The notes beneath the pieces are model-generated. The model was not told where the DNA came from. It saw only the letters and a program-made list of their open reading frames with translations, and ran no database searches. The position numbers were made by a program, and so were the translations under genes. From positions 10,580-74,579 of the forward strand of contig JAJTEN010000002.1 in the NCBI GenBank assembly GCA_021298155.1: a DNA stretch of 64,000 nucleotides. Reading direction: 5' to 3'. This document shows, in pieces, positions 24,469-48,718 of the stretch; within the stretch, counting starts at the first letter, position 1, and each line of letters begins with the position of its first letter. Source of the stretch: Sphingobacteriales bacterium. GTDB lineage: Bacteria; Bacteroidota; Bacteroidia; UKL13-3.

Positions 24469-24590
24469 AATTGATTGGGAATAAATGTTTAACATTGTTT
24501 TCCCTCGCAAATTGATGTTGCTATGCTACTACAAAGTAAATTTTAGATTACTAAAATAACACCTGATTGTAAAGAATACGTTAAGTAAGC

Positions 24591-25856
24591 TTACTTCACA
24601 TAAAACGGGAAATTGCCATAGGCAATTTGATTTTGATGATCGGTGATATATACAAAGAGTCTGTAAGCCCCATTTTGCATGGGAGCTTTAAAACTAAAAG
24701 CATCTCCAGTTTTAACTATATGAATAGGCAAGGCATCTGGTTTACGTTCAGCATCTCCACCAGATAAGGTAAATTCACTTTCAGGCATAAGTTCCCATTT
24801 ATATTGTAAACCTCCTTTGGTGCTATGCTCAATATCCAATTGAACCAATACTTGGGCGCGTTTGCTTACCTTTACACTAGCTGCAGCTTCCATCCCATTT
24901 AAAGTGTATTGCTTAATTCTTGGAGCCACCAGCTCAAGCGGTTTATTGCTCCATTCTTGTTGCAATACCTGCACACATTCACCATATTTATTATCAACAA
25001 AAACACCATACCAAGTAGGGGTTGTTTCTTGTTTTTGTCCCCATAAAAACACATAAGAACCCAAACAAATGGCACTATCTGCCAATATATGTTCCCGGTA
25101 CCGTTTTTGGTAAGTAATCGCCTTCTCTGTAGATGTTTGTTCTATGGGAGCTAACCAACTCGTTTTAGCAACCTCCCAATGGCCATTCGGACCCCATTCT
25201 GTTACCATATAGGGTTTATTCCAACCATACAAACGAATTTTTTGTGCCAAAGCTGGCAAATCTCCGTATGTATTTACACCCAAAATATCTATGTCCTTAC
25301 ACTTCTCTTTTATTAATGAAACTTCTGGCGCATCAATACCAGCTGTTACAACACAAGTAGGGTGATTCTTATCTTCTGCATGAATCATTGCTGCTATGTT
25401 TTGTACGGCATCCCAAACCGCAAAATCTGTATAAAACAAATCAACCTCATTACCCACACCCCATAATAATAATGCTGGATGGTCTTTGTAACGCTTCACG
25501 ATACTTTTAAATTGATTTAATTGATCCAAGCAGGCCAACTTATCACTATAATCAAAACCATGCCTCTCTGGTGGCATCCATAAACCAAGCATTACCGTTA
25601 ACCCACGCTTATGCGCTTCATCTAAAACCTCTTTTGCATTCTCTGCTCCCCACAACCTAACAGAATTAGCACCAGAAGCAAGTGCAATATCCATGTATAC
25701 ATGTCCGCCTACACCCTTTACATAATAAGGTGTATTATTTCTGAGCATTGTAAAATTACCTGCTTCATCTGTTTTAATGGTAACAGGCACTGGCTGCGCA
25801 TATACCCCACAAGTGAATAAAAGAAAGAGAAAACAAATTACTAGCACTTGTTTCAT
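24591..25856 (-). CDS. Glycoside hydrolase, GH2-like TIM barrel (clan GH-A)
   Basis: GANSVRLW, YKDHPALLLWGVGNE (acid/base), KPYMVTEWG (nucleophile). Confidence 0.85.
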   Translation of the reverse strand: MKQVLVICFLFLLFTCGVYAQPVPVTIKTDEAGNFTMLRNNTPYYVKGVGGHVYMDIALASGANSVRLWGAENAKEVLDEAHKRGLTVMLGLWMPPERHGFDYSDKLACLDQLNQFKSIVKRYKDHPALLLWGVGNEVDLFYTDFAVWDAVQNIAAMIHAEDKNHPTCVVTAGIDAPEVSLIKEKCKDIDILGVNTYGDLPALAQKIRLYGWNKPYMVTEWGPNGHWEVAKTSWLAPIEQTSTEKAITYQKRYREHILADSAICLGSYVFLWGQKQETTPTWYGVFVDNKYGECVQVLQQEWSNKPLELVAPRIKQYTLNGMEAAASVKVSKRAQVLVQLDIEHSTKGGLQYKWELMPESEFTLSGGDAERKPDALPIHIVKTGDAFSFKAPMQNGAYRLFVYITDHQNQIAYGNFPFYVK

Positions 25857-25860
25857 AAAC

Positions 25861-27675
25861 CTATTGTGTTTTTACTAATTTAACTCGCCCTTGTGTAATG
25901 CCATTTCCTACTTGCAACCAATATATGCCGCTTGAAATGCCTGGTAATTGCTTGTTTAAATCTGTTAAATTACCAACAGAAATGATAGATTTTCCATGAA
26001 TATCAAATAACTCAAAGGCATTGGGTACAAATGGTAAATCCAATTGTAGTTCATCCAAAATCGGATTGGGATAAACCTTAATCCCCCAGTTACTTTGCTC
26101 TAAATCTAGTAAGGCACTTTGAATATCCTTACATGGCTTTTCTTCAATGGCAAAATCATCAAAAAAATACACATCATTTGTATTTGTATTTGGTGCCAAC
26201 AACATCACCAATTGATCTATGCTGCCGTCTAAAGTATTTGGATCGGGCCTAAGAATTAATTTAAAGGTAAGCTCTTCCCACGACCTAGATTTGGTGGTTT
26301 TAGCCTGCAAAACACAACGCCTTCCAATAGGATAATCTTGCCCAGCACGGAGCCTGTTTTCAAAATTGATATTTATCTCTGTACCTACAGGAGCAGTAGT
26401 ATATAACTTCATTTTTAAAATCAAATTTCCACGCTCAAAATCACTCGCATTTTTTATTGGCATCGCCTTTAACCACAATGCATCATAGGAAACAGCCGAA
26501 TTTCTATAATACCTATTTACACCGTTACTAGCGTTTACACTGTCTTTTGCCGGATTGGTTATACTCCCAGCAAAGGTTCCTGTGCTACCCACCCAATATA
26601 TACTTCTTTGTTTTTCCAAATTATCTATTACTCCTTCGCAGGTATCTGGAAGGGCCCGAACCCATTTTGCTATCTTCTTAGATTTTCCATTATGGGTTAT
26701 CGTAACAAAAATAGAATCACTTTTTAATCCCCAATCTATTTTAGCCTGATCCAAACTAGCGCCGCTTCTAATACTTGCGCCTGCAGGCACCTCCCATAAA
26801 TAAGTGGCGCCTGGCAATTTTTGTGTGTAAAATATTTGGTTGGTGTCTTTTCGTAAAATAGCATCCGGACCACTAATAAAAATATGTGAAAGATCTTGAT
26901 ATACGCGAATATAATCTACCTGTAAAGTAGCCGTATCAGGAGTAGTAGCATCAGGATAACCTAAAAAATTACCACCAACTGCTAAGTTCATAATAACATG
27001 AAAATTTCTATCAAAAGGCCACCAAAAAGGATTGGTATTCACGCGCGTTTTAGTGCTATACAAAATAGTATCTACGTACCACTCAATGGTATTTTCATTC
27101 CATTGTAAAGTATACACATGAAAATCATTTGCAAAACTTCCATTGCTCAGGGTATAGGTAGTACCCGTGTATCTATTGTTAGGCACATAGGCGCCATAAT
27201 GAATCGTCCCATGCGTTGTTTGCGGTTCTTGACCCTTCGCTTCCATTAAATCTATTTCTCCACTTAATGGCCAAATACCATAATGATTCTCCGAAGGTAG
27301 AAACCACACCGCTGGCCAATATCCTCGTCCAACAGGAATGCGTGCACGTACTTCAATTCTACCAGAGGCAAAATCAACTTTATTTAATGTTCTAATGCGG
27401 GCAGAGGTATAGGTGTTTGAACCCACCGTTTCTTTTTTAGCAGAAATAGTCAACATACCATTCTGAACCTTCACATTTTCTTGCTTGTAAAATTGGAGTT
27501 CATTATTACCCCAACCGCATAAGTTAGGACATCCATTCCCTATTTGGTAACTCCAAAAATTGGTATCTAAGTTGTTCCCATTAAACTCATCACTCCAACG
27601 CAAAAACGCTTGTGCTTGGCTAAAAATTGGGTTCAAACCAACTATTAAAAATATATATGCTTTTAGGTATTTCAT
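25861..27675 (-). CDS. GH16 endo-beta-1,3-glucanase (laminarinase-type) with PKD-like linker, CBM-like domain and T9SS CTD
   Basis: WSDEF, GWGNNELQ, YTSARI, WPAVW, WPLSGEIDLME, NLAVGG; CTD VYPNP. Confidence 0.93.
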   Translation of the reverse strand: MKYLKAYIFLIVGLNPIFSQAQAFLRWSDEFNGNNLDTNFWSYQIGNGCPNLCGWGNNELQFYKQENVKVQNGMLTISAKKETVGSNTYTSARIRTLNKVDFASGRIEVRARIPVGRGYWPAVWFLPSENHYGIWPLSGEIDLMEAKGQEPQTTHGTIHYGAYVPNNRYTGTTYTLSNGSFANDFHVYTLQWNENTIEWYVDTILYSTKTRVNTNPFWWPFDRNFHVIMNLAVGGNFLGYPDATTPDTATLQVDYIRVYQDLSHIFISGPDAILRKDTNQIFYTQKLPGATYLWEVPAGASIRSGASLDQAKIDWGLKSDSIFVTITHNGKSKKIAKWVRALPDTCEGVIDNLEKQRSIYWVGSTGTFAGSITNPAKDSVNASNGVNRYYRNSAVSYDALWLKAMPIKNASDFERGNLILKMKLYTTAPVGTEININFENRLRAGQDYPIGRRCVLQAKTTKSRSWEELTFKLILRPDPNTLDGSIDQLVMLLAPNTNTNDVYFFDDFAIEEKPCKDIQSALLDLEQSNWGIKVYPNPILDELQLDLPFVPNAFELFDIHGKSIISVGNLTDLNKQLPGISSGIYWLQVGNGITQGRVKLVKTQ

Positions 27676-29957
27676 TGGTTTGTAATAGTTATGTTTTGAC
27701 TTAAGGTATCTACTGAAAGTTTAAATGAACCGGGTTCAACGCCCCATTTGTTTGATAGTCCAACAAATGCTAAATGTTGCACAGGTAATTCTATTGAAAC
27801 AATTTCACTTGCTCCCGGCCTCAAAAAAATCTTTCGAAATGCCCGCAATTTTTTTACCGAAGGTGTAATACTTGCCACCTCATCTTTACTGTAAAACAAT
27901 GCGGTATGCAAACCCTCCATGTTACCTATATTGCTTATGGTAACATTCATTTTAATGGTATCTGAAAGTGTATAACTTTCTTTATCACAAGTAAAATTGC
28001 TGTAAACATACCCTGTATAACTAAGGCCTGAACCAAACTCAAACAATGGATTAAAGCCCAATGGTTTAAAATCTTTGTTCAACACCTCCGTATATTTACA
28101 ATCGTATGTTAGATGAAAACTCGAATATCTTGGATAGGTAAAGGGTAATTTACCTGAAGGATTAGATAAGCCACATAATACATTTGCTATAGCAGTTCCA
28201 CCGGCATCTCCAGGTAAACCTGCAAAAATAATAGCATCACATAAAGACTCGGTGTTAGCAAAGGTTCTAGGCCTTCCTTCCAATAAAACTACAATCACCT
28301 TTTTCCCTGCTTGCTTATATACTTTAATCAGGTGTTGTTGAGCTGCAGAAAGTTCTAAATCCAATATATCTCCAGGTTTTTCTGTGTAGGTATCTTCGCC
28401 TAAAAATAATACCACTGAAGCTATATTTTTTGCCGCTGCAAGTAATGCTTCATCAGACAAATTGGTATCATAAGTATTACCCGGCAAATAAACCACTTTA
28501 TCCATCCCATGTATGTTTTGCAATGCCTCCAAACATGTTGGAACCTCAGAATTATAAGTGGTATCTCTACCTTGCCAAGTATGTGTCCAACCTCCATTTA
28601 ACGCATTTATATAATGCGCATTGGCACCTGTAACTAAAATCTTTTCAGTTGGAGATAATGGTAAAGCTTGATTTGAATTCTTTAATAAAACTAAACTTTG
28701 TGTAGCCAATGCCAAGGATAACTCTTTACTTTGGTCTGAACCAATTGAATCATATTTACTGCTATTTGCAGGTGAGTGTTCAAATAAACCAAGTTTAAAT
28801 TTAAGGGTTAATATCCGCAAAACAGATTGATTTATGCGCGTCATTGAAATGTTTCCTTCCTTTACATTTTCAATTAGGTAATGCGTAAATAAAGTATCTA
28901 AGGGAACCATAGCCATATCAATTCCAGCATTAATAGCCACGGCTACCGCTTCTTTATAGGTGGATACTATTTTATGTCGCTCATACAAATTTTTGATGTC
29001 TTCCCAGTCTGTTACCGTTATCCCTTTAAACTTTAATTCTTCGCGCAAAATAGTTTGTAATAAAAACTTACTGGCATGAACAGGCTCGCCATTTACTTCA
29101 CCAGAGTTTATCATGATAGTTTGTGCGCCAGCCTCAATAGCTTGAGCAAAGGGCGGTAAAAAAATTTCACGCAATTGCCTTTCTGGGATATAAGCAGGAG
29201 TTCTATCCATTCCACTGCGGGCATCTCCATAACCAACATAGTGTTTTAAACAAGCTGCTACTCCAGGTAGTCCATTTTTTGAAGGCATTTGATAGGCTTT
29301 AACCATACTCGAACCTAAGCATGAGGCCACCATTGGATCTTCACCAAATGTTTCCCAGAACCTAGGCCATCTTGGATTTCTAGCTACATCTAAAACTGGA
29401 GAAAAATTCCAAGCCAAACCACTTGCACGTACATCATTGGCAGTATTGGTAGCCATATCTGCTATCATATCTGTATTAAAACTAGCTGCTAAATTGATTT
29501 GCTGCGGGTACAGGGTTGCACCTACAGTATAGTTGGCGCCATGTATCGCATCTATCCCATACAAAACGGGTATTTGAAGTCGCGTTTGCATCCGATACGC
29601 ATGCAAAGCTTCGCTCACTTCTTTCCACTGAGCCAATGTAAAAGTATTACCAGGTACATTTAATATAGAACCTACACCCATTTCTACCAATACTTTTCTG
29701 AGCCTAACAGTATCTAAAGCATGCGGCTTTGTTAAATTAAATTGGTCTTTACCCTGCAAAATCATCTCAATACTAAGCTGTGTCATTTGCCCTGCTTTCT
29801 CTTCCAAACTCATCTCATTTAGAATAGCTTGGGCGCGCTCCTCTGGCAATTTATCTTTGGCCGACTTACACGATGAGATAGCCAATAATAAAGTAAATAC
29901 ACCCCAAATAATTTGGTTCGAACCTAATTTTTTTCTAATTGTATATGATCTATCCAT
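27672..29957 (-). CDS. GH3 beta-glucosidase (lipoprotein)
   Basis: SLEEKAGQM, DAIHG, ETFGEDP, KHY, VTDW, NPSGKLP, Fn3-like tail; lipobox ISSC. Confidence 0.93.
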   Translation of the reverse strand: MDRSYTIRKKLGSNQIIWGVFTLLLAISSCKSAKDKLPEERAQAILNEMSLEEKAGQMTQLSIEMILQGKDQFNLTKPHALDTVRLRKVLVEMGVGSILNVPGNTFTLAQWKEVSEALHAYRMQTRLQIPVLYGIDAIHGANYTVGATLYPQQINLAASFNTDMIADMATNTANDVRASGLAWNFSPVLDVARNPRWPRFWETFGEDPMVASCLGSSMVKAYQMPSKNGLPGVAACLKHYVGYGDARSGMDRTPAYIPERQLREIFLPPFAQAIEAGAQTIMINSGEVNGEPVHASKFLLQTILREELKFKGITVTDWEDIKNLYERHKIVSTYKEAVAVAINAGIDMAMVPLDTLFTHYLIENVKEGNISMTRINQSVLRILTLKFKLGLFEHSPANSSKYDSIGSDQSKELSLALATQSLVLLKNSNQALPLSPTEKILVTGANAHYINALNGGWTHTWQGRDTTYNSEVPTCLEALQNIHGMDKVVYLPGNTYDTNLSDEALLAAAKNIASVVLFLGEDTYTEKPGDILDLELSAAQQHLIKVYKQAGKKVIVVLLEGRPRTFANTESLCDAIIFAGLPGDAGGTAIANVLCGLSNPSGKLPFTYPRYSSFHLTYDCKYTEVLNKDFKPLGFNPLFEFGSGLSYTGYVYSNFTCDKESYTLSDTIKMNVTISNIGNMEGLHTALFYSKDEVASITPSVKKLRAFRKIFLRPGASEIVSIELPVQHLAFVGLSNKWGVEPGSFKLSVDTLSQNITITNQ

Positions 29958-31111
29958 AATTCTCCTTCTTGCAAAAATGTTATCAATAGTTGTTTAAAAT
30001 TCTGGGTATTAAATTTAGCCTTATTCCAGTCGAATGCCGACAATGGAATCCGCACTTTTTGCCATTTTTTACCTTGCCTATCTATTTGTTGTAGTTCACT
30101 TAAAAACGACTGATTTAATCCAATATTTACCTGCTCACCTGAATACGATTCAAAACCAATTTGTATCTTATTGAGCTCAGATAAATTAGGCGTATAAACA
30201 AAAAAACTTAGGCTATACGCATCTATAGAATCTGGCAAAGCAATGGCTTGCCAACGTTCCCAATTAAAGCCTATTTGGTTATTAACATGGCTATTTTTTA
30301 TAAGATCCCATGATAGGTGTAAGGCAGAAGTCCCCATTAAATAAATTTGGGAATCTAGCTGTATTGTTCTGCCTAAATATGTGCCCAATCCCCATGCATA
30401 TTGCATATTGTCTTCAAAAATCAATGCCGGAAATGTTTGGGTAGTGGTTTGGCCAAATTTTTGATTCTTTTTAGCCTTCGCTTTATTTCCTTCTTCAATA
30501 AATATTTCATCTATCAAAATAGCTCCCTCACCCTGACACTCTATATTTAAACTCTTAATATTGCTAAAATCACTTTTTGGTCCAGCAGCCTCTAAAAACG
30601 CAGATAATGGAATAATTACTTTTTGCCATGCTTCATCTATTGGATATCGCTCTAAGTATTTCGCTTTAAACAAGGCAGCAGTTTGTATGCCACTATAATC
30701 TTCTAATAAAAATATTAAAGTAGGCACAAATTGAGTGCCTTTAATAGCTCGGATATAAAAAGTAATATTTCCATTTTGCATTACCGGTGTAAGGTCTTTC
30801 GCAGCATACCCATTCCACCCAATTCCAAATCCTAACCAGGCACATGATCCAGTTTTATTCCATTGCAATTTAATGCTCGATTTACCTTTATAGGCAAGCG
30901 TATCAATCCTACTAAAATGTTTGCAATCTGTTTTTTCTAAGCCCCAAATATCTGCTGTTTGGTTACTAAAAATTTCCTTATCCGTAAATACTTGTTGCTT
31001 CTCTAGATCATAGGTATTTCCCCACTCATCCACTAAGTTTTGTGTTTGCATATGGATACCACATGCAGACAGAAAAATTAAACACCAAGTGAGATAACTG
31101 ATCCGCTTCAT
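29924..31111 (-). CDS. Lipoprotein with two tandem CBM-like beta-sandwich domains
   Basis: Lipobox LSAC; internal repeat WQKV(I/R)IPLSAF...G-x-x-x-ID(E/H)I twice. Confidence 0.7.
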   Translation of the reverse strand: MKRISYLTWCLIFLSACGIHMQTQNLVDEWGNTYDLEKQQVFTDKEIFSNQTADIWGLEKTDCKHFSRIDTLAYKGKSSIKLQWNKTGSCAWLGFGIGWNGYAAKDLTPVMQNGNITFYIRAIKGTQFVPTLIFLLEDYSGIQTAALFKAKYLERYPIDEAWQKVIIPLSAFLEAAGPKSDFSNIKSLNIECQGEGAILIDEIFIEEGNKAKAKKNQKFGQTTTQTFPALIFEDNMQYAWGLGTYLGRTIQLDSQIYLMGTSALHLSWDLIKNSHVNNQIGFNWERWQAIALPDSIDAYSLSFFVYTPNLSELNKIQIGFESYSGEQVNIGLNQSFLSELQQIDRQGKKWQKVRIPLSAFDWNKAKFNTQNFKQLLITFLQEGELWIDHIQLEKN

Positions 31112-32145
31112 TAGGGTTGAAAGGGTTTATAATAGGTGAAATTTGCAAAATCAATGCCCACTCGCGTAATACCACTTGTACCCGGCTGAGATAATAACAA
31201 GAATTGAGTAGCAATAATTCTGTCGGGATCCTTCTTGCCTGTTCTATCTACATTACCAAAGCCGCCAGAAGTAGAAATTCGGGTATCTCCGTAAGAGAAG
31301 CTAACCAATTTCCAACCTTGCCAATTAACAGGTAAGCGAAAGTTATACGCGCCCTCTTCCGCAGGCTGATAAATACCATCTTTATTGTCGTCTTCTTGAA
31401 ACTCAATACTCAACTCCGCCTTATTATCGCCCCAACCATACACATATGCATTAAAAAAAATATTATTCGGATTTTCAGTGGCAAATGAAAAATAATTAGA
31501 TCCTAAACCCTGACTTACGCGCGCACTCAAGTTCATACCGCATAAAAATAAACTGGCCGTTGGACCTCTATTACCCGCTAATACATAGAATCTTGTTTTT
31601 TCTGTTGGCGAAACTCCTTGGTAATTTACCGATGTTCCATTAAAGGTTTGCTGACCTTCAGTAAAAGTATTGTAAGGCCTTTGCGGACTCTCAAAATCGT
31701 CTATTAATATATCTACTTTAGGTGTTGGCCGAACATCTGTAATCGTTAGCGTATCAGAATAAATGGTATCGGGATAATTCTCAAATCGCAAGCGAGCAAC
31801 ACAGGGTTCATTTTTTCTAAAAAAAGGGGCAAAAGTAATGGTACCATCCCAACTAATGGGAAAGGCATTAAAGTCTTTTTCATTGCCAGTAAACGTTTTT
31901 TTAGCACCGCTATTTAAGCCTATTACCTCCATTGTCCATTGTGTTCGAATACTTAATTTACCCTTAAATAGCACCTGTTCTTGGTTCGCAAAATTCACCG
32001 TTTTTACAGAGGCACGAATAGGTTCAAGCAAAGCAAATTGGCCAAATAAATCAACTAATTCTGGCCCTTCAATTGCTGTATCTTTTTTGCAGCCCATGAA
32101 AAGAATTAAATAAACCCCAATAAAAATTAACAAAAGCTTTTTCAT
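31111..32145 (-). CDS. Surface lipoprotein with an Ig-like domain and a CBM11-like domain
   Basis: Lipobox FMGC-KKD; LIDDFE...VNWQGWKLVSFSY. Confidence 0.7.
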   Translation of the reverse strand: MKKLLLIFIGVYLILFMGCKKDTAIEGPELVDLFGQFALLEPIRASVKTVNFANQEQVLFKGKLSIRTQWTMEVIGLNSGAKKTFTGNEKDFNAFPISWDGTITFAPFFRKNEPCVARLRFENYPDTIYSDTLTITDVRPTPKVDILIDDFESPQRPYNTFTEGQQTFNGTSVNYQGVSPTEKTRFYVLAGNRGPTASLFLCGMNLSARVSQGLGSNYFSFATENPNNIFFNAYVYGWGDNKAELSIEFQEDDNKDGIYQPAEEGAYNFRLPVNWQGWKLVSFSYGDTRISTSGGFGNVDRTGKKDPDRIIATQFLLLSQPGTSGITRVGIDFANFTYYKPFQP

Positions 32146-32149
32146 AGTT

Positions 32150-33871: not shown

Positions 33872-33872
33872 A

Positions 33873-35798
33873 CTAAAAAAATACTTTAAGTTCTATGGTG
33901 GTTTCTGTTCCCTTTATCTGGTCTTTTACAAAGCTCTTATCTTGCTGATTAAACCACCTTCTTCGAGCATATAAATAGGTATTGTTGCTTATTCTATAAT
34001 CCATTCCCAATCCAAATAAAGTTCCTTCTTGATTAACCGGATCATTAGCCAAACTCCCCAATATTCCATCCACATTATCACCTCTATTTAGCTGATTATT
34101 TCCTTTAATATATTCTTTACCATAAGTACTTACCAAACTTAAAGAATTACTCAGTTTAAATATAGCATCTAACTCATGATAATGCGTTCTTAATAGCGCT
34201 TTATTTCCATTTATAGGTATCAGGCTAAAGCCTTCCTGAGCCGAACCAAATGAACCCACGTAGAGCAAATAAAACGGAAGAAATGAATTGTTAATATACT
34301 GCTTTATTTGAACCTGAAGCATGGTAAAGCCTAATAAAGATTTTGGTAATCCTATACTGTTGGTATCAGTAATAAACATACTTTGAGAGAATCCTCTGAA
34401 ATAACTAGTCCAATTGCCATAAGCACCAATATTATTGGTAAACGGACTAAACCTAGAAAAGGGTAAAGCATTTATTTTATGCCCAAACGCAAGCTCATTT
34501 CCCAAACTTCGTATTTCGGTTGCACACATGTTACCAATGTTTATTTTGCTGGTTTTTGTTATATCAAACCATGCATTTACACTAAATCCTTTTCGATTAC
34601 TACTAACCTGTCCAACGTCGGTAATAGAACCCGCAAAGTTGCTGATACCGCCGCTTCCTCCTAAGGTAGAACCGCTTTGGTTCACGGCAGCAGAACTTAC
34701 AATATTGGTATTGCCGCTTAAAAAATTGCCATAATAATTTATAAACTCCGGACTCACATAAAATCCTTCAAGCTCTATCGGAACAAAGGTATACTTCTTA
34801 GGTGAACGAATACTTAATCGCGCTGCATTCCCCCATCCAGCCTCTTGTACCTCAGAATATAACCTTCCCCTTCCAAATTCTGTAGTTATTTTAAAATCCT
34901 TAATGGTGCCATCATAGCTTAAGGTGTGCAACTGTATTCCAGCTTCCTCTTTTGCTATAGAATCTGGATACAACCTGTAATCTATAAATTGTGCGCCAAA
35001 AGTATGGTCTCCTAGCTTTTTCCTGATTCTACCTCCCATTGTATAAGAAGGAATTTGATTGGTAAGAAAGGCTTGAGCTGGAGTGGTTCCATATAACAAG
35101 CGAAGTTCAATATTCCCCGGCAATTCCTGACCATCTACCATCAAACCTCTGAACGGCTGCATACCAAATCGCATGTCTCTGCTAATGTTGCCGTAGTTAT
35201 AATAGTTAGAGGCTCGGTCAAATGAAACTTCATTACCTTCCCAAGGCCAACGTTCATAAATACTAAATCTTTGATAGCCAACAAAACTACTAAATACCAT
35301 TCCGCTTAATTCAATCCAATTAATACCGCCCATGTGCGCAGTAAACTTCCCAATATCTGTTTGTATGCTGCCCGTAAGGTTTATTCCCAAATTCAAATTC
35401 ATTGGACTCTCACCTGGCCTACCCGAAAAATTATGGTAGAGGGCGTAATCCATACCAATGTATGTTTTTGAAGTTGGCTGAACCGAAACATTAAGTAACA
35501 TCAGCGGAGGATCACGGTATACGTCGCCTGTGCCCAACACAAAAGCTGGCGCACTTGCGTAGGGATTTCCCGGAATAACGATAAACGCTTGTTCTAAACT
35601 TCGATTAATTCCGAAAAAGCGATAGTAGCCCCCAACGCTTAATTTTTTCAATGGTAATATATCTGCCTTGCCCGAGGAAATTGGGCGGTCTTGCATACTC
35701 GTATCTTGCTCCTGTGCAGCTACAAAACATGGACCCATCAGGCAAAAAATCACCTGAATGATGTAAAAATAAATGCGCAGCCTGGCTTTCAATGACAT
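33873..35798 (-). CDS. Uncharacterised outer-membrane beta-barrel-like protein A
   Basis: Signal peptide, amphipathic strands, C-terminal TTIELKVFF; distantly similar to the next gene. Confidence 0.7.
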   Translation of the reverse strand: MSLKARLRIYFYIIQVIFCLMGPCFVAAQEQDTSMQDRPISSGKADILPLKKLSVGGYYRFFGINRSLEQAFIVIPGNPYASAPAFVLGTGDVYRDPPLMLLNVSVQPTSKTYIGMDYALYHNFSGRPGESPMNLNLGINLTGSIQTDIGKFTAHMGGINWIELSGMVFSSFVGYQRFSIYERWPWEGNEVSFDRASNYYNYGNISRDMRFGMQPFRGLMVDGQELPGNIELRLLYGTTPAQAFLTNQIPSYTMGGRIRKKLGDHTFGAQFIDYRLYPDSIAKEEAGIQLHTLSYDGTIKDFKITTEFGRGRLYSEVQEAGWGNAARLSIRSPKKYTFVPIELEGFYVSPEFINYYGNFLSGNTNIVSSAAVNQSGSTLGGSGGISNFAGSITDVGQVSSNRKGFSVNAWFDITKTSKINIGNMCATEIRSLGNELAFGHKINALPFSRFSPFTNNIGAYGNWTSYFRGFSQSMFITDTNSIGLPKSLLGFTMLQVQIKQYINNSFLPFYLLYVGSFGSAQEGFSLIPINGNKALLRTHYHELDAIFKLSNSLSLVSTYGKEYIKGNNQLNRGDNVDGILGSLANDPVNQEGTLFGLGMDYRISNNTYLYARRRWFNQQDKSFVKDQIKGTETTIELKVFF

Positions 35799-35881
35799 TG
35801 AATTATGCTGCTAACTTCATCATAATAATTCGAAAAACATTTTTTTTAAACCCTACTCACTTACATCAATCAAATATTATT

Positions 35882-35900
35882 CTACTACATTGCTACTACA
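35882..35900 (-). promoter_or_regulatory. Direct-repeat operator CTACTACA-N3-CTACTACA
   Basis: Perfect 8-mer repeat at 11-bp period between the regulator and the operon; identical site at 41768-41786. Confidence 0.75.
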
Positions 35901-35966
35901 AAATTTGCCAAATTACTGATTGTAAAATATTTATTACTTGACAAGGACGCTCAATTTTCATACCTT

Positions 35967-38849
35967 ATGCCACTAATTGATCACCACCAAATGCCAAAAA
36001 AAGGGATATATTTACTATTTTATTGTTTCGTGCTTGGCATACTAAAACTGGCATCACAACCCATCAATACAGCTCCCTTGGTTAAAAACTATACCAAACA
36101 AATGTATCAAGGTGGAACACAAACTTGGGACATTTGTGAAGATCATAAAGGGCTAGTTTTCTTTGCAAATAATAATGGACTACTCCTTTTCGATGGACGA
36201 GCATTTACTAATTTTCCATTACCCGGTAAAACCATTCTTCGTTCTATTTTATATGATTCTATCTCTCACAGAATTTATGCTGGTGGGCAAAATGAAATAG
36301 GATATTATGGATATACCGAAAGTGGCAACTTACATTTCGTTTCCCTCGCTCATTTACTCCCCAAAGAATATAAAGGTTTTGAAGATGTTTGGACCATTTT
36401 ACAGAAAAATGGAATCATCTACTTTCAAACCAGTAAAACCATTTTTGCATTTCAAAATAATAAAATGAGTTTGCTAAAACCTAGCGAACAATCGCTAGAA
36501 AAAATGCAAATAGCCAATCAAAAACTATACGTTTATGATGCTGCTGGCGCCGTTTTTGAACTTGAAAATATCGCTTTTAAACAAATTATTCCAGCTAGCA
36601 ACTTAGACATATCCGCAATCGTTGATTTAAATAGCCAAACCCTACTTATTTGTACCTATAAAAATGGCTTGTTTGTTTACAAAAACAATATCCTGAGTAA
36701 AGCACCTTTCAATGATGAAGAATTGAAAAATTTTAGGATATATAGGGCCTGTAAATATGGTAATAAAATTGTAATCGGAACAAGCAGATCTGGTATTTTC
36801 TTTCTAGATGAAAATGGCAACATAATCTCTAAAATGAATATTCAAACCGGACTCCAAAACAACAATGTGCTGAGTTTATTCGCAGATAAAAATAATAATC
36901 TTTGGCTCGGCCTAGATAATGGAATTGATTTACTACGACTTAATTATCCTTTTGCATACATTTACCCCGACGGCATTTTAAAGGGTACTGGCTACTCTAT
37001 GACCAATTTCCAAGGTAAAGATTACTTTGGAACAAATAACGGACTATATGAACACCTGGCAGGCGAAAATTTTAAACTGATAAAAAATACAGAAGGTCAA
37101 GTCTGGAGCGTTCAACAAATTCAACAAAAACTATTTGTTTCACACCATGAAGGCTTGTTTGAAGTAATCGCAAATGAAGCCATCAAAATTGCAGACATTA
37201 GGGGCTGTTGGAAAATTTTAGAATTAAAAAATAAGCCTGGCTACTTTATAGTTGGTACCTATAATGGTATTAGTGTCTACAAATGGACTAACAATAGCTT
37301 ATCATTTGTAGCTAAGCCTTCAAACTTCAAAGAATCTAGCCGCTTTATTGAGGAAGATGAAAACGGAAATATTTGGGTAGGTCACCCCTATAAAGGCCTC
37401 TACAAACTAACATTAAATTCAAATTTTACGCAAATTCTAGAAGCTAAGCGGTATGGAAAAGCCCAAAAACTACCGGCTGAAACAGAGAATTTAGTATTTA
37501 ACTTAGGTAATGGCATTTGCTTTACCAGTAATGAGGGTGTATTTCAATACAATTCGGCTTTAGATGGCTTTGAACCCATTAAAATATTTGGGGGGATATT
37601 TAATAAAAATCAAAACTATAAGCGAATCATTCCGGGTAAAAACGGCAAGTTATGGGTTATTCAAAATCAAGAAATTTCATTTATTAAACAATCCTACAAT
37701 GGGGTAGATTATTCTTATGAGAAAAAAGCTATCCCAAAAATGGATCAAAATTTAGTTGGTGGTTTCGAATTCTTGCAAGAATGCGAAGGAGATAATCTTT
37801 TTCTTGGAGTAGAAACTGGTTTTATGAAACTCAATTTGAAGCAAATGGAAACATTTGTCTTAGACCCGCCAAAGGTTATTATAACTCAAATAAACGGACT
37901 CACCTTGGCAGATAGTTCGTACTTTAAATGGATTGATAATACAACACCAAAATATAGCATTCCAGATCGGTCTATCGAATTTTGGTTCAGCTCAACGAAT
38001 GGAAACTTTTATAATGATTTAAGCTTTTCAACCTATTTAGCCGGATGGGATAAAACCTGGACGCCTTATAAAACAAGCAACAGCAGAGAGTTTAGCAGGC
38101 TATCATACGGAGATTATACGCTTCATGTAAAAGCGAAATGTATGGGTGTAGAGGGCCCGCCATTATTGCTAAAATTTAGTATTCCCGCTCCTTGGTATTG
38201 GAGCACTATAGCGAAAGTATTTTATGCTCTTTTTGCTATTCTTAGTATTTTACTGATTGGTTTTTACCCGCAGCGACTTGTTCGAAAAAAAGCTAGCCGA
38301 ATTATAGCCGAGAAGCAAGACCAATTTAACAAACAACGTGCAGATTTATTGCTGGAAAAAGAACATAAAGAAAAAGAATTAATTGCCCTCAAAAACCAAC
38401 AATTGCAAATTGAATTGGAACATCAAGGCAGAGAATTGGCTTCTTCCACTATGCACATCGTTCAAAAGAGTGAAATGCTCTTGAGCATCAAGGAAAAACT
38501 CAAAAAAATCAATAACCTCAGCAACGACCCAAAGATAAAACCAGAAATGAGTGAGCTCATTAAAACCATTGAGAAAGACACCCTCATTGATAAAGACTGG
38601 GAAAAGTTTGAACTCTACTTTAATCAAGTTCATAATAGTTTTACCCAAAGTTTAAAATTACGTTTCCCGAGTTTATCTGCAAACGACATCAAAATGTGCT
38701 CTTATTTGCGGATGAATTTATCTACCAAAGAAATCGCGTCTATACTCAATATTACCACGCGAGGGGTAGAAGTAAGCAGATATCGCCTGAGAAAGAAAAT
38801 GGGCTTAGAAAATGGGGCAAATATTGGCGACTTTCTGAGCCAATTATAA
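35967..38849 (+). CDS. Membrane-spanning one-component sugar sensor/regulator (beta-propeller, Y_Y_Y, TM, LuxR-type HTH)
   Basis: Propeller repeats (LWLGLDNGI), YGDYTLHVKA, PWYWS plus TM, C-terminal LSTKEIASILNITTRGVEVSRYRLRKK. Confidence 0.9.
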   Translation: MPLIDHHQMPKKGIYLLFYCFVLGILKLASQPINTAPLVKNYTKQMYQGGTQTWDICEDHKGLVFFANNNGLLLFDGRAFTNFPLPGKTILRSILYDSISHRIYAGGQNEIGYYGYTESGNLHFVSLAHLLPKEYKGFEDVWTILQKNGIIYFQTSKTIFAFQNNKMSLLKPSEQSLEKMQIANQKLYVYDAAGAVFELENIAFKQIIPASNLDISAIVDLNSQTLLICTYKNGLFVYKNNILSKAPFNDEELKNFRIYRACKYGNKIVIGTSRSGIFFLDENGNIISKMNIQTGLQNNNVLSLFADKNNNLWLGLDNGIDLLRLNYPFAYIYPDGILKGTGYSMTNFQGKDYFGTNNGLYEHLAGENFKLIKNTEGQVWSVQQIQQKLFVSHHEGLFEVIANEAIKIADIRGCWKILELKNKPGYFIVGTYNGISVYKWTNNSLSFVAKPSNFKESSRFIEEDENGNIWVGHPYKGLYKLTLNSNFTQILEAKRYGKAQKLPAETENLVFNLGNGICFTSNEGVFQYNSALDGFEPIKIFGGIFNKNQNYKRIIPGKNGKLWVIQNQEISFIKQSYNGVDYSYEKKAIPKMDQNLVGGFEFLQECEGDNLFLGVETGFMKLNLKQMETFVLDPPKVIITQINGLTLADSSYFKWIDNTTPKYSIPDRSIEFWFSSTNGNFYNDLSFSTYLAGWDKTWTPYKTSNSREFSRLSYGDYTLHVKAKCMGVEGPPLLLKFSIPAPWYWSTIAKVFYALFAILSILLIGFYPQRLVRKKASRIIAEKQDQFNKQRADLLLEKEHKEKELIALKNQQLQIELEHQGRELASSTMHIVQKSEMLLSIKEKLKKINNLSNDPKIKPEMSELIKTIEKDTLIDKDWEKFELYFNQVHNSFTQSLKLRFPSLSANDIKMCSYLRMNLSTKEIASILNITTRGVEVSRYRLRKKMGLENGANIGDFLSQL

Positions 38850-38890
38850 AAAACAATGCGGCCACCTTTTTCAAGATGGCCGCACGTTTT
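38850..38890. terminator. Bidirectional terminator between convergent genes
   Basis: AAAAC..TGCGGCCA...TGGCCGCA..GTTTT hairpin. Confidence 0.7.
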
Positions 38891-38918
38891 ACAATTACCA
38901 AAACAAATTTTAGTTCTG

Positions 38919-41666
38919 TTATTCTACTACCAATTTTACTGTTTTAACAGATTGGTTCATAGAAACCTTAACAAGGTAAATTCCTTTTTCTAAGCCTTCA
39001 ATTGGCAATGCATATTCAAGTTTACCCGCAGCTAAATTACTTTGCTTAGTTACACTTGATCCAAGTAAATTGAAAATTTCAATGCTTAACGGCATGTTAG
39101 ATTCTTTTGGTAAACTCAATGTAAACATGCCAGAAGCTGGATTTGGATAAATAGACAATCCACCCAATACTTGCTCTTCCATACCAATTACCTCACAAAT
39201 TGTACAGGTATTCCAGCAATACGCACCCACCTTTACAGCAGAAGAATCACTGATTCTAACAAAACGATTGGTAAATGTGCCTGTAGTTCTTGTACATGGA
39301 TCGCCAGGGTTGAACTTCTCATCATCCACCCAATTGCCTATCGTATATTTAAACTCATAGCTACCAGTATCTAATCTTAATTTTACTTCATAAATATTAT
39401 TCCCTACCAATGTCATTGGCGTGCAATCTCCACACCAGCCATTAAATGAGCCATTTAGTGTTACACCTTTGCTCAAATCTCCCACGTAATCTTTCATGTT
39501 AACCCTGAAAGTTACCATTGATCTTGGTGCGGTCTTATCACAAGTTACACAGCTTTCCCAACAAACAAGTGGTAAGGTATCCTGCGGCTTGTTAGCTACT
39601 TTAAAAGTACGATTGGTGAAACCAAAAGCAGTTCTTGTACATGAACTTCCCTCAACTAAAATTTCTTGTGCCTTCCAGTTGCCAATTGCATATTTAAAAT
39701 CATAGCTAGAATCTTTGTCTAATAATACTGTAGCCATCCAAATATTGCTTGATCCTTGCTTTGTCATTGGTGTACAATTGCCACACCAGCCATTAAAGGT
39801 TCCATTAAGCGTTACGGTATCTGTTGCAGATAAATTATATTTAGACATATCTACTTGGAAACTTACATTAGATTTAGTAACAGCGCCACCCGAACAAGCA
39901 GAACAAGATTCCCAACAAACTGGTGCTAAATTGATATCACTATTCAAAGTATTTAAAACCCTGTTGGTATTAACTCCTGTAGTTTTTGTACATGGTAATG
40001 TGGTAGCCAAAGATTCCTGACTTACCCAATTGCCAATCGTATACTTGTATTCATACTCGGTGTTTTTATCCAAAGGAATGGTAATCGTCCATGATGAGGT
40101 GCCTGGTATTTTTGTCATTTTTGCACATGCACCACACCAGCCATTAAAAGTTCCGTTTATAGTAACTGTATCGCTTGCTGTTAAGGGTAGGTTCTTAACA
40201 TCTACCGTAAAGGTTACATTTACTTTAACAGGCGGTGGCGGTGTAATGCCTGAACCAAACTTCACGTCGTCAAAATAATAAGTCTTCTCTCCAGCTGTTT
40301 GGCCAGTTGTTCCGAAATTAAAGAAGATAGACAACATCTTGTAGGTATAGGTAAAATTGATAGGTGCAGTAGCTGTAACTTGATTTGCAAAATCAAAATC
40401 TAAAACTTCCCAAGAACCAGCTGTCTTAGTTCTAGCCTCTGTTTCTACACTTTTTGTTGGATCAGTAGGATCTTCTGCCTTCAATCTCACTGCAATTCCA
40501 CTGTCTGGCGACCAAACTCTAACATTTAATTTAGTAGACCCACTTACAAATGGAATAGCTTCTGCCAAACCAGTACTTGGGTTCATAGTAGTTCCTGCCC
40601 ATAACTGAGCAGTATTGGTTTTTATTACTTTAACTACTTTGTTCAGACTATTGGTTGGATCAGTAACAATACTGCTTGCATTGCCTCCAAAATCAGCCAA
40701 TACGTAATTCACATTACTTGAATCAAAGGTAATCGGTAATTTAACAGTTTGAAGCACAGGTGCACTCGGTGGCAACATTCTTACATTATCAAAATAATAT
40801 GTTTTTTCACCCGCAATGGCACCGGTTGTACCAAAATTAAAAAATACAGACAATTTGTTGTAAGCAAAAGTAAAGTTAATAGCAGGAGTTCCACTTGATT
40901 GATTTGTAAAGTCAAACTCTAAATCTTGCCAAACATTTGCCGCTGTTGTGCGTGTATCTGTTTCTACACTTTTGTTGGCATCGCTCGACATTTCAGCCTT
41001 AAGCTTCACCACTATTCCGCTATCTGGCGACCAAACACGAATTTTCATCTTGGTGGCATTACTTGCAAAAGGAATTGAGTTGTTAAACCCTGAACCTAAG
41101 CTTGTTCCAGCCCACGCTTGGGCAGAATTGGTTTTAATAACCTTGGCAACTTTGTTGCTTGAATCAGTTGGATCAACCACAACTGAACTTGCATTACCTC
41201 CAAAATCCAACAAATTGTAATTTACATTACTGCTATCAAAATTAATGGGTAAGGTCATAGCCTGCAAGGTTGGACAAGCTGAACAAGAGTTCCAACATAC
41301 CAATGACATGGTTGTATCTGCAGTAACAGTAACTTTACGGTTAGTAAATGTGCCTGAAGTTACTGTACAAGGAGAGCCACTTGCGAGCGACTCTTGTGCA
41401 TTCCAACCGCCAATTGTGTATTTAAATTCATGATTTCCAGAAGGAATTGAAAAGGTGCCCTGCCAAACATTGGTAGTCCCTTGCTTTACCAAAGGATTAC
41501 ATCTTCCACACCACGAATTCCAAGTTCCATTCACATAAACTGTATCATTTAAGTTTTGATACTGAGACATGTCTACCCTAAAGGTAACATTGAAGCTTTG
41601 TGCTTTTACTGCCCCGTAGGTTAGCAATAAAAGCATAAACATCGTCCATTTTGTAAAATTTCGCAT
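38919..41666 (-). CDS. Non-catalytic T9SS-secreted repeat protein (4 Cys-rich Ig/CBM-like repeats, 2 CBM-like repeats)
   Basis: V(T/S)FxV(D/N)...NG(T/S)(W/F)N(S/G)WCGxC...CWxxC four times; LPIxFDSSNVNY...GEKTYYFD twice; CTD IYPNP...GIYLVKV. Confidence 0.85.
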   Translation of the reverse strand: MRNFTKWTMFMLLLLTYGAVKAQSFNVTFRVDMSQYQNLNDTVYVNGTWNSWCGRCNPLVKQGTTNVWQGTFSIPSGNHEFKYTIGGWNAQESLASGSPCTVTSGTFTNRKVTVTADTTMSLVCWNSCSACPTLQAMTLPINFDSSNVNYNLLDFGGNASSVVVDPTDSSNKVAKVIKTNSAQAWAGTSLGSGFNNSIPFASNATKMKIRVWSPDSGIVVKLKAEMSSDANKSVETDTRTTAANVWQDLEFDFTNQSSGTPAINFTFAYNKLSVFFNFGTTGAIAGEKTYYFDNVRMLPPSAPVLQTVKLPITFDSSNVNYVLADFGGNASSIVTDPTNSLNKVVKVIKTNTAQLWAGTTMNPSTGLAEAIPFVSGSTKLNVRVWSPDSGIAVRLKAEDPTDPTKSVETEARTKTAGSWEVLDFDFANQVTATAPINFTYTYKMLSIFFNFGTTGQTAGEKTYYFDDVKFGSGITPPPPVKVNVTFTVDVKNLPLTASDTVTINGTFNGWCGACAKMTKIPGTSSWTITIPLDKNTEYEYKYTIGNWVSQESLATTLPCTKTTGVNTNRVLNTLNSDINLAPVCWESCSACSGGAVTKSNVSFQVDMSKYNLSATDTVTLNGTFNGWCGNCTPMTKQGSSNIWMATVLLDKDSSYDFKYAIGNWKAQEILVEGSSCTRTAFGFTNRTFKVANKPQDTLPLVCWESCVTCDKTAPRSMVTFRVNMKDYVGDLSKGVTLNGSFNGWCGDCTPMTLVGNNIYEVKLRLDTGSYEFKYTIGNWVDDEKFNPGDPCTRTTGTFTNRFVRISDSSAVKVGAYCWNTCTICEVIGMEEQVLGGLSIYPNPASGMFTLSLPKESNMPLSIEIFNLLGSSVTKQSNLAAGKLEYALPIEGLEKGIYLVKVSMNQSVKTVKLVVE

Positions 41667-41767
41667 AGTTTTTTTAATTATTGGTGTAAAAATAACCCCG
41701 AACCAAGCCTCACACAAATTTACCAACCCTACAATACTTTCACTTAATAACTATACGAAAAAACAAA

Positions 41768-41786
41768 CTACTACAATACTACTACA
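41768..41786 (-). promoter_or_regulatory. Direct-repeat operator CTACTACA-N3-CTACTACA
   Basis: Same as 35882; upstream of the TAAATTTG -7 box (41715-41722, minus strand). Confidence 0.75.
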
Positions 41787-48009: not shown

Positions 48010-48642
48010 ATGGAACTTATAAAGCAAAATTTAAATACTTATTACCCGCAATTCGACGAAGATCTTAAGCATATAATTGCCACAAATGGGCGAATCCAAA
48101 AATTCAAAGTTGGAGAAACAATTATGCAGCAGGGTCAATTTCTAAAGCATACCATGCTTATAACAAGGGGTCGTGTAAAGCTACTTTCTGAAGGCGAGGA
48201 TGGAGAAGAATTCTTCATGTATTATTTGGAAGCAGGACAAGCTTGCGCGTTAAGCTTTGTTTGTGCTCAAAAAAATAAAAAAAGCGATTTAGATGCAACT
48301 ATCATTGAGGATACAGAAGCAATATTAATTCCTATTGAACTTATGGATGAATTAATGATTAAAAATAAATCTTGGTATTATTTTGTTTTGGATACTTACA
48401 GATCAAGATTTAGAGAGCTTTTAGATGTTATAAAAAGTGTTGCATTTCACAGCATGGACGAAAGACTATCATACTATTTAGTAAAGCAAAAAAATGCATA
48501 TAAAAGTAATCTCATTACCCTAACTCATGAACAAATTGCAAACGACTTAAACTCATCACGTGTTGTTATTTCAAGATTGCTAAAACAAATGGAAACACAG
48601 AAAAAGGTTAAACTACATCGAAATGCAGTAGAAATACTTTAA
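48010..48642 (+). CDS. Crp/Fnr family transcriptional regulator
   Basis: cNMP-binding-like N-domain; HTH LTHEQIANDLNSSRVVISRLLK. Confidence 0.92.
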   Translation: MELIKQNLNTYYPQFDEDLKHIIATNGRIQKFKVGETIMQQGQFLKHTMLITRGRVKLLSEGEDGEEFFMYYLEAGQACALSFVCAQKNKKSDLDATIIEDTEAILIPIELMDELMIKNKSWYYFVLDTYRSRFRELLDVIKSVAFHSMDERLSYYLVKQKNAYKSNLITLTHEQIANDLNSSRVVISRLLKQMETQKKVKLHRNAVEIL

Positions 48643-48651
48643 TAAAAGGTA

Positions 48652-48696
48652 TGTAACATTTGTAACGCAATGAATTATTCAACAATTATACATTTG
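48652..48696 (+). promoter_or_regulatory. Putative Crp/Fnr site plus -7 box
   Basis: TGTAACATTTGTAACG (48652-48667), 21 bp, TACATTTG (48689-48696). Confidence 0.7.
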
Positions 48697-48718
48697 TACA
48701 AAAGTTAATATTGTACTT

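Follow-up and report, generated by a model that had tools for sequence, protein, structure and literature searches.

How laminarin fragments would enter a cell whose laminarin genes include neither susC nor susD is the question raised by a 64,000-nucleotide stretch of DNA from a Sphingobacteriales bacterium (assembly GCA_021298155.1, contig JAJTEN010000002.1, positions 10,580 to 74,579; hereafter the window, to which positions refer). The genome counts 2,504,146 bases, is 98.7% complete, and belongs to a planktonic freshwater (lake) host. On the minus strand of the window, at 35798..24591, lies an operon of seven genes, in the order A and B (outer-membrane barrels), C and D (lipoproteins), and three glycoside hydrolases (GH) of families 3, 16 and 158. 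Our proposal is that this is a laminarin-type operon free of SusC and SusD (SusCD), in which A to D form the outer-membrane uptake module and work as set out below; we give this reading a probability of roughly 0.6.

According to the list of open reading frames (ORFs), the junctions between the seven genes are gaps of 1 to 4 nucleotides (nt) or overlaps. A regulator gene, R, with Reg_prop, Y_Y_Y and GerE domains, lies divergently on the plus strand, separated from A by an intergenic region of 168 nt. This is the tight operon, divergent from a Y_Y_Y/LuxR sensor, that an initial annotation of the DNA had described, and the two lipoproteins it placed there were found as well (lipobox Cys19 in C, Cys17 in D). 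The same annotation gave the locus as 24591..41786; its portion at 38919-41786 holds a separate, co-regulated gene, S (935 aa, minus strand, beyond R), with an operator of its own. The arrangement is not a matter of chance: other genomes show it at 57 loci. The evidence supports a beta-1,3-glucan (laminarin) utilisation operon without susC or susD. The features are listed here from the upstream side, with CBM standing for carbohydrate-binding module and T9SS for type IX secretion system.

41769..41786, minus strand: operator copy 2, TGTAGTAG-N3-TGTAGTA, upstream of S
38919..41726, minus strand: gene S, a secreted multi-CBM protein with Pfam CBM48/AMPK1_CBM/CBM20/X25-like matches and a T9SS C-terminal domain
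35967..38849, plus strand: regulator R, putatively BguR-type, 960 aa, with Pfam Reg_prop, Y_Y_Y and GerE
35883..35900, minus strand: operator copy 1, TGTAGTAGCAATGTAGTA, within the R/A intergenic region
35851..35868, minus strand: second conserved element of the promoter region, TGATGTAAGTGAGTAGGG, lying some 15 nt downstream of the double box
33873..35798, minus strand: barrel A, 641 aa, with a signal peptide, about 24 disordered residues and a plug-less barrel model
32150..33871, minus strand: barrel B, 573 aa, with a signal peptide and a barrel model; CHU_1277 family
31111..32145, minus strand: lipoprotein C, 344 aa, with lipobox Cys19 and two beta-rich regions
29924..31111, minus strand: lipoprotein D, 395 aa, with lipobox Cys17 and two CBM30-like beta-sandwich modules
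27672..29957, minus strand: GH3 beta-glucosidase (Pfam), 761 aa, a lipoprotein with lipobox Cys30
25861..27675, minus strand: GH16 endo-beta-glucanase, 604 aa, with Pfam GH16, a PKD-like domain and a T9SS C-terminal domain
24591..25856, minus strand: GH158 endo-beta-1,3-glucanase (sequence search of the Protein Data Bank, PDB), 421 aa, with a type I signal peptide

The enzymes point to the substrate. The GH3 has the N-terminal, C-terminal and Fn3-like Pfam domains, and the GH16, probably at the surface or secreted given its T9SS sorting domain, is the sole match to PF00722 in the genome. The 421-aa enzyme had been called GH2-like, and a weak Pfam match to the GH2 TIM barrel exists; however, its residues 16-420 match the PDB chain 9oro_A, 'Glycoside hydrolase family 158', at E 4e-95, and it also matches 6pal_A at E 3.8e-68, so that GH158 is the correct assignment. 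Its type I signal peptide suggests a periplasmic location. A set made of GH16, GH3 and GH158 resembles the 1,3-beta-glucan loci of Bacteroides, as these are presented in an excerpt of PMC7157763. Just downstream, 80 nt after GH158, a 1760-aa T9SS cargo protein is encoded at 19228-24510 (minus strand), with choice-of-anchor I, metallophosphatase/5'-nucleotidase and SusE-like domains; its gene has no operator copy, and a homologue also stands behind the operon in one related locus (L027).

Gene S adjoins R in most of the related loci, and in relatives its types of module are fused to GH16 and CBM56; S is a probable beta-glucan-binding surface protein. A start at the Met codon at 41669, which is followed by a signal peptide, is likelier than the upstream TTG, and fits with the ends of RNA-library contigs, which lie at 41659-41702 in all four runs that cover S. 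The runs come from four studies, and their matching contigs are at least 95% identical to the locus. In two of the runs S is spanned from end to end by a single contig (2729 and 2778 nt), in the two others by several; parts of A, B, C, GH3 and GH16 are covered in one run as well. Since the evidence consists of contigs, depth cannot rank the genes and carry-over of DNA is possible; likewise, the lack of contigs over 36020-37221, within R, carries no meaning.

What, then, occupies the place of susC and susD? The initial annotation had the head of the operon hold proteins of 641 and 573 aa devoid of plug, TonB or SusD features, and the profile searches bear this out. Both A and B have a signal peptide and an aromatic ...FF C-terminal end. 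Neither they nor C match any Pfam family at E≤10 or any NCBIfam family at E≤1, and for A and B NCBIfam remains silent at E≤10. In particular, the Plug (PF07715), TonB_dep_Rec (PF00593), TIGR04056 and SusC/SusD models find nothing in A or B even at E 10, while elsewhere in the same genome the Plug model gives 24 matches and TIGR04056 gives two SusC genes. AlphaFold 2 models were built from homologue alignments. In that of B (pLDDT 88, 22 strand segments), the first strand begins 4 residues after the signal peptide, and two long loops, 123-159 and 309-382, are modelled confidently (pLDDT about 77-96). In that of A, about 24 disordered and poorly conserved residues precede strand 1. With N-termini this short, there is no room for a plug or a TonB box in either protein.

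Searches with Foldseek against the PDB returned generic outer-membrane barrels alone for A and B, with TM scores of 0.2-0.45 that do not discriminate. In a structural comparison (VIA), the top six rows for A were barrels of TonB-dependent transporters (TBDTs), aligned from just behind their plug. The best was the SusC-like BT1762 (5t3r_D), with Z 14.4, 392 aligned residues and a root-mean-square deviation (rmsd) of 4.5; a porin (Z 13.1) and an usher (Z 13.0) ranked seventh and eighth, within 1.4 Z of the top. For B, the same 5t3r_D chain gave Z 14.9, within 0.2 of the top Z, over 388 residues with an rmsd of 4.1, and sugar porins scored alike (chitoporin 7vtz, Z 15.1, 301 aligned, rmsd 6.2; ScrY 1a0s, Z 15.0). 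Despite these tied Z values, TBDT barrels give B clearly longer and tighter superpositions than sugar porins do. The models thus suggest that A and B are plug-less barrels of TBDT size, which is a statement on geometry, not on descent.

This geometry is what makes it conceivable that A and B are degenerate TBDTs, descended from SusC-like ancestors and driven by TonB even now, their own loops or a partner protein serving as the plug. The best superpositions of both models are 22-stranded TBDT barrels (BT1762), the association of a barrel with a surface lipoprotein recalls SusCD, BtuB-BtuG and XusAB, and the predicted structure of CHU_1276, the Cytophaga hutchinsonii protein that corresponds to A by gene order, 'retrieved several hits to TBDTs' according to excerpts of PMC12016534. 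A common number of strands does not prove descent, however, and neither the complete lack of Plug, TonB_dep_Rec and TIGR04056 signal at E≤10 nor the 4 residues (B) and about 24 poorly conserved residues (A) ahead of strand 1, which leave no place for a TonB box, fits with an energised transporter. Moreover, when profiles of A and B were run against the 1873 ORFs of the same genome, the matches at E≤10, inspected by eye, included no ORF at a Plug-match locus. We regard this explanation as improbable.

The same search argues for kinship between the two barrels, the best non-self match of B being A (E 0.0011). In hhalign the two are collinear over 488 columns and share an ..NRQG.. loop motif, but the match is weak (7%, E 0.005), so we consider it moderately certain that A and B are distant paralogues. 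The third-best match of the B profile was a 502-aa ORF of the same genome, at C47:1921-3429 (E 0.032).

It had been proposed that the barrels are porin-like. This holds as far as both lack a plug, but it does not account for their best superpositions, which are on 22-stranded SusC/TBDT barrels, or for the prediction, described below, that B holds C. The substrate-specific porins of Proteobacteria, of the LamB (maltoporin), ScrY (sucrose porin) and ChiP (chitoporin) type, have 16-18 strands and are mostly trimers without lipoprotein partners. The matched chains of this type have 320-435 residues and align to B over 274-301 residues with an rmsd of 6.2-6.8, and at E≤10 Pfam reveals no sequence relation of A or B to porins. 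What the proposed mechanism has in common with LamB, ScrY and ChiP is TonB-independent passage of oligosaccharides freed by surface enzymes. On the models, A to D would resemble a plug-less analogue of SusCD more than a classical trimeric porin.

A different function, export, was considered in connection with the family DUF6029 (PF19494): the barrels would secrete or expose a polysaccharide, or bring out the lipoproteins C and D. A protein language model puts A and B nearest to DUF6029 among named families (0.96), and HHpred links DUF6029 to plug-less, Wzi-like barrels near polysaccharide-export genes (PMC9603273, in excerpt). The genome has a DUF6029 barrel, at C2:89653-92245 (L061:9654-12246; E 6e-128), which also has a lipoprotein behind it, of the Omp28 family, and then DUF1684; this context is unrelated to the operon. 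The assignment of A and B to DUF6029 was rejected, as hmmscan does not find the family in them at E≤10, hhalign between the B profile and the DUF6029 protein of the genome gives a probability of 6%, and no DUF6029 ORF appeared, by eye, in the profile search of the 1873 ORFs. The conserved neighbours, furthermore, are all catabolic enzymes or importers (GH16, GH3, GH158, GH9, GH18, NagB, sodium:solute symporter (SSF) and major facilitator superfamily (MFS) transporters), and genes for glycosyltransferases, Wzx/Wzy or outer-membrane polysaccharide export (OPX) proteins are absent. Export was already disfavoured on these grounds, and we see very little chance that it is the function.

The two lipoproteins are not SusD-like either. 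SusD models (PF07980, PF14322, PF12741, PF12771), which do find the real SusD genes of the genome, gave no match in C at E≤10, and CBM30 was the sole match in D. That match (E 1.4e-15) covers two stretches, in the manner of SGBP-B (SGBP, surface glycan-binding protein), and the D homologue of one relative (L053) has a weak SGBP_B_XBD match. Sequence and profile searches of the PDB with C, D and S brought nothing useful, the best for D being CBM30-type chains at E 0.3. In C, the lipidated Cys19 is immediately followed by KKDTAIEGPELVDLFG, and a conserved peptide, KKD..IEGPELxDLFG, precedes the two beta-rich regions; residues G27, P28, L30, D32 and G35 are invariant in 21 sequences.

A structure prediction of the complex between B (residues 22-573) and C (residues 19-344), the one pairing that was run, was made in three runs with three controls. 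It gave an ipSAE of 0.66 (0.66, 0.70 and 0.63 in the individual runs), against 0.00 for the best control. Among 157 solved complexes, 116 come up to that mark, as do 2 of 215 mismatched pairs; these counts are a rough guide for B and C, for which our own alignments were used. The runs share at least 62% of their contacts, with a partner pLDDT of at least 81. Because the family has no Pfam or NCBIfam model and no specific match in the PDB, a success by memory is unlikely. The confident interface joins residues 23-35 of C to residues 310, 382, 414-419, 461, 463-465, 502, 504, 511-515 and 517 of B, that is, to the base of extracellular loop 7 and to loops 8-10, with strands counted from the periplasmic N-terminus. 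Both sides fall among invariant columns: loop 8 of B contains the invariant E412, G415 and G417, and segment 23-35 of C is likewise among them. The body of C is not confidently placed, and the prediction speaks for a peptide tether, which need not be a lid.

We then turn to regulation. R consists of a signal or anchor sequence, Reg_prop beta-propellers, Y_Y_Y, one transmembrane segment near residues 747-767 (hydrophobic stretch 745-769) and a GerE/LuxR helix-turn-helix; HisKA, HATPase and receiver domains were not found by Pfam. On this architecture R would be a one-component regulator that spans the membrane, of the BguR type. BguR of Formosa agariphila, which has the same architecture, is reported to be an activator required for growth on laminarin (excerpt of 10.64898/2026.01.10.698779). 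The operator is a direct repeat, TGTAGTAG-N3-TGTAGTAG. When searched as TGTAGTA-N4-TGTAGTA on both strands of the whole genome, it has exactly two matches, one upstream of A and one upstream of S. Because S carries a copy of it, we place S in the regulon; the motif shows this membership, and activation by R is what the Formosa protein would lead one to expect by analogy. The second element is conserved in related loci as (G/T)AAGTAGGTGAGTTGGG, and a similar element lies upstream of S; it may act in the promoter region. Both elements were found, by eye, in the R-proximal intergenic regions of 33 related loci.

Does a susCD pair elsewhere in the genome obey the same operator, and so account for import? 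The initial annotation had raised this possibility, and a search of the whole genome speaks against it. There are two susCD pairs, one in a starch-type locus with GH13, GH31 and CBM20 (contig 10), and one at C51:2225-6502 (L001) without any adjoining carbohydrate-active enzyme. The latter, about 29 kb upstream of the operon, comprises a susC-like gene of 954 aa (with a plug and without the carboxypeptidase-like domain) and a SusD-like_2 gene, flanked by a T9SS protein and a small outer-membrane barrel. Neither pair has the operator, whether strict or loose. The looser pattern yields 5 further matches in the genome, 3 of them inside ORFs and none beside a susCD pair. One match just downstream of the ORF of a TonB-dependent receptor, on C4, was dismissed; it reads AGTAGTAAGAAGAGAAGTA and is a poor match. 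The neighbourhoods of 20 full-length BguR homologues, from 18 other genomes, showed a SusC beside the regulator in 9 cases, barrel A in 2 and neither in 9, within the stretch fetched. The same type of regulator can thus adjoin either outer-membrane module.

The 57 loci with A outside this genome all come from metagenome-assembled genomes, labelled Bacteroidia, Flavobacteriales, Cryomorphaceae or Chitinophagales. Restricting counts to loci with enough contig downstream of A, we found B in 49 of 49, C in 45 of 45 and D in 43 of 43, followed by GH158 (37/37), GH16 (36/37) and GH3 (31/37), and R was present on the opposite strand within 4 kb upstream of A in 43 of 47. In several more distant loci, mostly labelled Flavobacteriales, a gap of about 1.7 kb separates an extra T9SS gene from A; in L053 it is filled by the gene of a sodium:solute symporter (PF00474, E 7e-91), which immediately precedes A on the upstream side. 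MFS sugar transporters are encoded in three other loci (L064, L068 and L076). In the genome studied here, the SSF symporter has distant homologues alone (29% and 23% identity), neither of them at this locus.

One of the loci with an MFS transporter, L064 (G344:C1:1266000-1285999), belongs to a high-GC genome of another class and encodes A, B, a C-like lipoprotein and two GH158-containing proteins. No D homologue was recognised in it, and so it seems to be the D slot that varies within the cassette. The A of this locus was located in a different reading frame. An apparent 917-aa fusion that includes B in this locus was discarded as an ORF artefact of high GC content; the true start of B has its own signal peptide.

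In a broader search, a threshold of E≤0.001 picks out 755 representatives of the B family from 1.84 billion clusters at 50% identity. Of 401 genomes sampled within the class, 43 contain the family; of 401 sampled across the phylum, 4 do so at E≤1e-10. Fourteen further B-family loci, in 10 genomes, all contain B with a C-like lipoprotein, and 13 of them contain A as well (in L096 an A-like ORF was not called; one B in L090 was seen in the class-wide genome searches only). Profile E-values in the 14 loci range from 2e-74 to 1.6e-139 for A, from 3e-105 to 6e-213 for B, and from 2e-29 to 4e-96 for the best C-like protein. The enzymes beside the cassette differ. A GH9 endoglucanase is found in L089, L090 and L092, in the order A, B, C, a 380-aa protein and GH9 (L092 has GH5 and GH3 in addition). 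A GH18 chitinase with NagB-type isomerases and a deacetylase domain is found in L093 and L097, and in the same layout, partly annotated, in L098. GH16 with GH3 is found in L087 and L088. Some genomes of one small order (G563, G711 and relatives) have up to five barrels of the CHU_1277 family each, and the copies examined in G563 and G435 (loci L087-L093) are in separate cassettes beside GH9, GH18 or GH16 with GH3, which suggests that this lineage relies largely on the cassette.

The name of this barrel family came from the GH9-linked barrel of L092, which in a search retrieved, at 44% identity, a protein (P0405) that NCBI names 'CHU_1277 family cellulose-binding protein [Cytophaga hutchinsonii]'; in spite of that name, no model of NCBIfam release 20.0 matches P0405. 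B itself is 30% identical to it over 566 aa in BLASTP (E 2e-65), and hhalign with the B profile gives a probability of 100% (E 1.6e-85, 544 columns), with a common loop motif, ..NP.Y.NI.PYG.AT.NR.G.. The GH9-linked barrel of L089 shares 52% identity with CHU_1277, and the B profile finds it at E 8e-143. The best identity to CHU_1277 among the genomes searched was 53%. The correspondence of A, C and D to CHU_1276, CHU_1278 and CHU_1279 is by gene order alone. Excerpts of PMC12016534 state that chu_1276, chu_1277 and chu_1279 are required for, or important to, the use of cellulose, in which the two SusC/SusD homologues of C. hutchinsonii are not involved; that CHU_1278 and CHU_1279 are bimodular beta-sandwich, SGBP-B-like proteins; and that chu_1280 encodes an endoglucanase. 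An excerpt of PMC5553014 calls CHU_1277 an 'outer membrane porin' and reports it as critical to the use of cellulose 'via participation in cellooligosaccharide assimilation'. Both papers cite Ji et al. 2014 for the first study of CHU_1277.

The layout thus corresponds to the chu_1276-1280 cluster, published as an 'atypical PUL' (polysaccharide utilisation locus): two outer-membrane barrels, two bimodular beta-sandwich proteins and one or more glycoside hydrolases, without SusC/SusD in the locus and with the SusC/SusD homologues of the organism located elsewhere. The cassettes linked to GH9 in L089, L090 and L092 bridge the two systems. We conclude that the locus is probably a laminarin version of the Cytophaga type, and that 'candidate new glycan-uptake system', as the initial annotation had it, is too strong: B is homologous to CHU_1277, and a SusCD-free system is already known, described genetically for cellulose in Cytophaga. 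There are also clear differences. The enzymes are GH16, GH3 and GH158 for a soluble beta-1,3-glucan here, and an endoglucanase for crystalline cellulose there; the regulator here is of the one-component BguR type, whereas a sigma factor of the extracytoplasmic function (ECF) group is reported for chu_1276; and the host here, unlike Cytophaga, has a 2.5-Mb planktonic freshwater genome.

Work on Cytophaga also gives weight to an explanation in which A to D would be a scaffold and not a channel, a surface platform on which glycan-binding proteins and enzymes, namely the GH3 lipoprotein, GH16 and S, are positioned while oligosaccharides enter through a TBDT, the susCD pair at C51:2225-6502 or porins. 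Loss of CHU_1276 or CHU_1277 lowers the beta-glucosidase activity associated with the cells (excerpt of PMC5553014). Growth on cellulose requires CHU_1279, whose presence counts for more than its ability to bind: variants impaired in cellulose binding rescue growth all the same, for which the authors propose stabilisation of a complex (excerpts of PMC12016534). In our prediction of B with C, it is the N-terminal peptide of C alone that is placed with confidence, as a tether rather than a lid, and the 24 Plug-domain matches and two susCD pairs of the genome would provide other routes. On the other hand, the operator is absent from every TBDT and susCD, no TBDT or susCD is found among the recognised genes of the 57 related loci, and in relatives the barrels directly adjoin an inner-membrane sugar symporter. 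Two barrels of about 600 aa, conserved at 35-92% identity with invariant loop motifs, would be costly for a mere anchor, and Ji et al. 2014, as cited in the excerpt of PMC5553014, tie CHU_1277 to cello-oligosaccharide assimilation. We consider a scaffold unlikely, if a serious competitor.

If A to D form an uptake module, the system may work as follows. S and the T9SS-exported GH16 would bind and cut laminarin at the cell surface, as their domains suggest. C would be tethered by its N-terminal peptide to the extracellular loops 8-10 of B, as predicted, and D presumably in a like manner to A or B, so that the lipoproteins would hold oligosaccharides at the mouths of the barrels. These oligosaccharides would then cross the outer membrane through A, B or both without energy from TonB, since both barrels lack a plug domain and leave no space for a TonB box; in B, the long and conserved loops 123-159 and 309-382 could constrict or gate a pore that would otherwise be very wide. 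In the periplasm, GH158 and the lipoprotein GH3 would reduce the oligosaccharides to glucose, to be imported by a sugar symporter. Marine relatives encode this symporter inside the operon (SSF), as do other relatives (MFS), whereas in the present genome its gene would lie elsewhere. Finally, R would sense beta-glucan fragments in the periplasm and activate the operon and S through the TGTAGTAG repeats.

Several points weigh against this scheme. Import through A and B, as well as its independence of TonB, is what we infer from models and gene content. Any one of the 24 proteins with a Plug match could import oligosaccharides without carrying the operator. The model of A has a pLDDT of 74 with several segments below 50, and its strand count is uncertain; in the fold search with B, only about 1 unit of Z separates TBDT barrels from porins and ushers. 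Last, the acidic signal for surface export that would directly follow the lipobox Cys is not obvious in D in this clade.

Compared with canonical SusCD laminarin PULs, the cassette takes the same position in the locus, beside the same type of regulator and with the same set of enzymes, and it likewise pairs a large barrel (B, 22 strand segments in the model) with a surface lipoprotein that is predicted to sit on extracellular loops. It differs in that A and B, unlike SusC, have no plug, no TonB box, no carboxypeptidase-like N-terminal domain and no sequence similarity to TBDTs, and that the lipoproteins are of beta-sandwich, CBM-like type, not helical and TPR-like as SusD is. There are also two different barrels here and one there.

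In searches of open-access PMC papers and of bioRxiv, the cassette came up for the cellulose cluster of Cytophaga alone, though subscription papers and bioRxiv supplements may differ. Within that scope, we found neither a version for laminarin that has a regulator of the BguR type together with its operator, nor the spread of the cassette in aquatic Bacteroidota beside laminarin-, cellulose- and chitin-type enzymes, nor the predicted peptide tether between C and B. What the locus adds is a complete, regulated laminarin system without SusCD, in a genome whose sole GH16 sits in it. The SusC/SusD pair is generally accepted as the mark of a PUL in Bacteroidota. As judged from excerpts of PMC13543919 and 10.1101/2023.09.07.556657, SusC and SusD serve to find PULs and as markers in the metaproteomics of blooms. 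With the cassette present in 43 of the 401 genomes sampled in the class, beside laminarin-, cellulose- and chitin-type enzymes, counts of PULs based on SusCD would overlook some of the capacity of aquatic Bacteroidota to take up glycans. Cassettes for soluble substrates may also be an easier route to the long-puzzling mechanism of cellulose use in Cytophaga, because laminari-oligosaccharides are handled better in transport assays than crystalline cellulose.

A wider proposition, which we put forward tentatively and at somewhat less than even odds, is that A-B-C(-D) is a second, general and TonB-independent outer-membrane glycan importer of the Bacteroidota. It would be built from two paralogous plug-less barrels of TBDT-like size that act together, each gated or fed by a beta-sandwich lipoprotein whose short, conserved N-terminal peptide ties it to extracellular loops of the barrel, with enzyme sets swapped for laminarin, for cellulose or cellodextrin (GH9) and for chitin (GH18). 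In streamlined planktonic lineages, the present 2.5-Mb genome among them, it would take the place of SusCD in uptake of the main algal storage glucan.

Two other parts of the window deserve mention. At 48010-56226 (plus strand) lies a sulfur-handling cluster, which encodes a CRP-type regulator, a TauE exporter, a rhodanese/metallo-beta-lactamase-fold protein and Sulf_transp, together with a SoxA/TsdA-type dihaem cytochrome c, an OprD-like porin and a SoxB-like protein of the 5'-nucleotidase family. At 8052-9080 and 9206-9574 (plus strand), a GTPase of the release factor 3 (RF3) type is apparently carried by two ORFs separated by a gap of 125 nt, the first of 342 aa (EF-Tu GTP-binding domain and EF-G domain 2) and the second of 122 aa (RF3_C); a frameshift, a fault in the assembly or a genuine split might each explain this.

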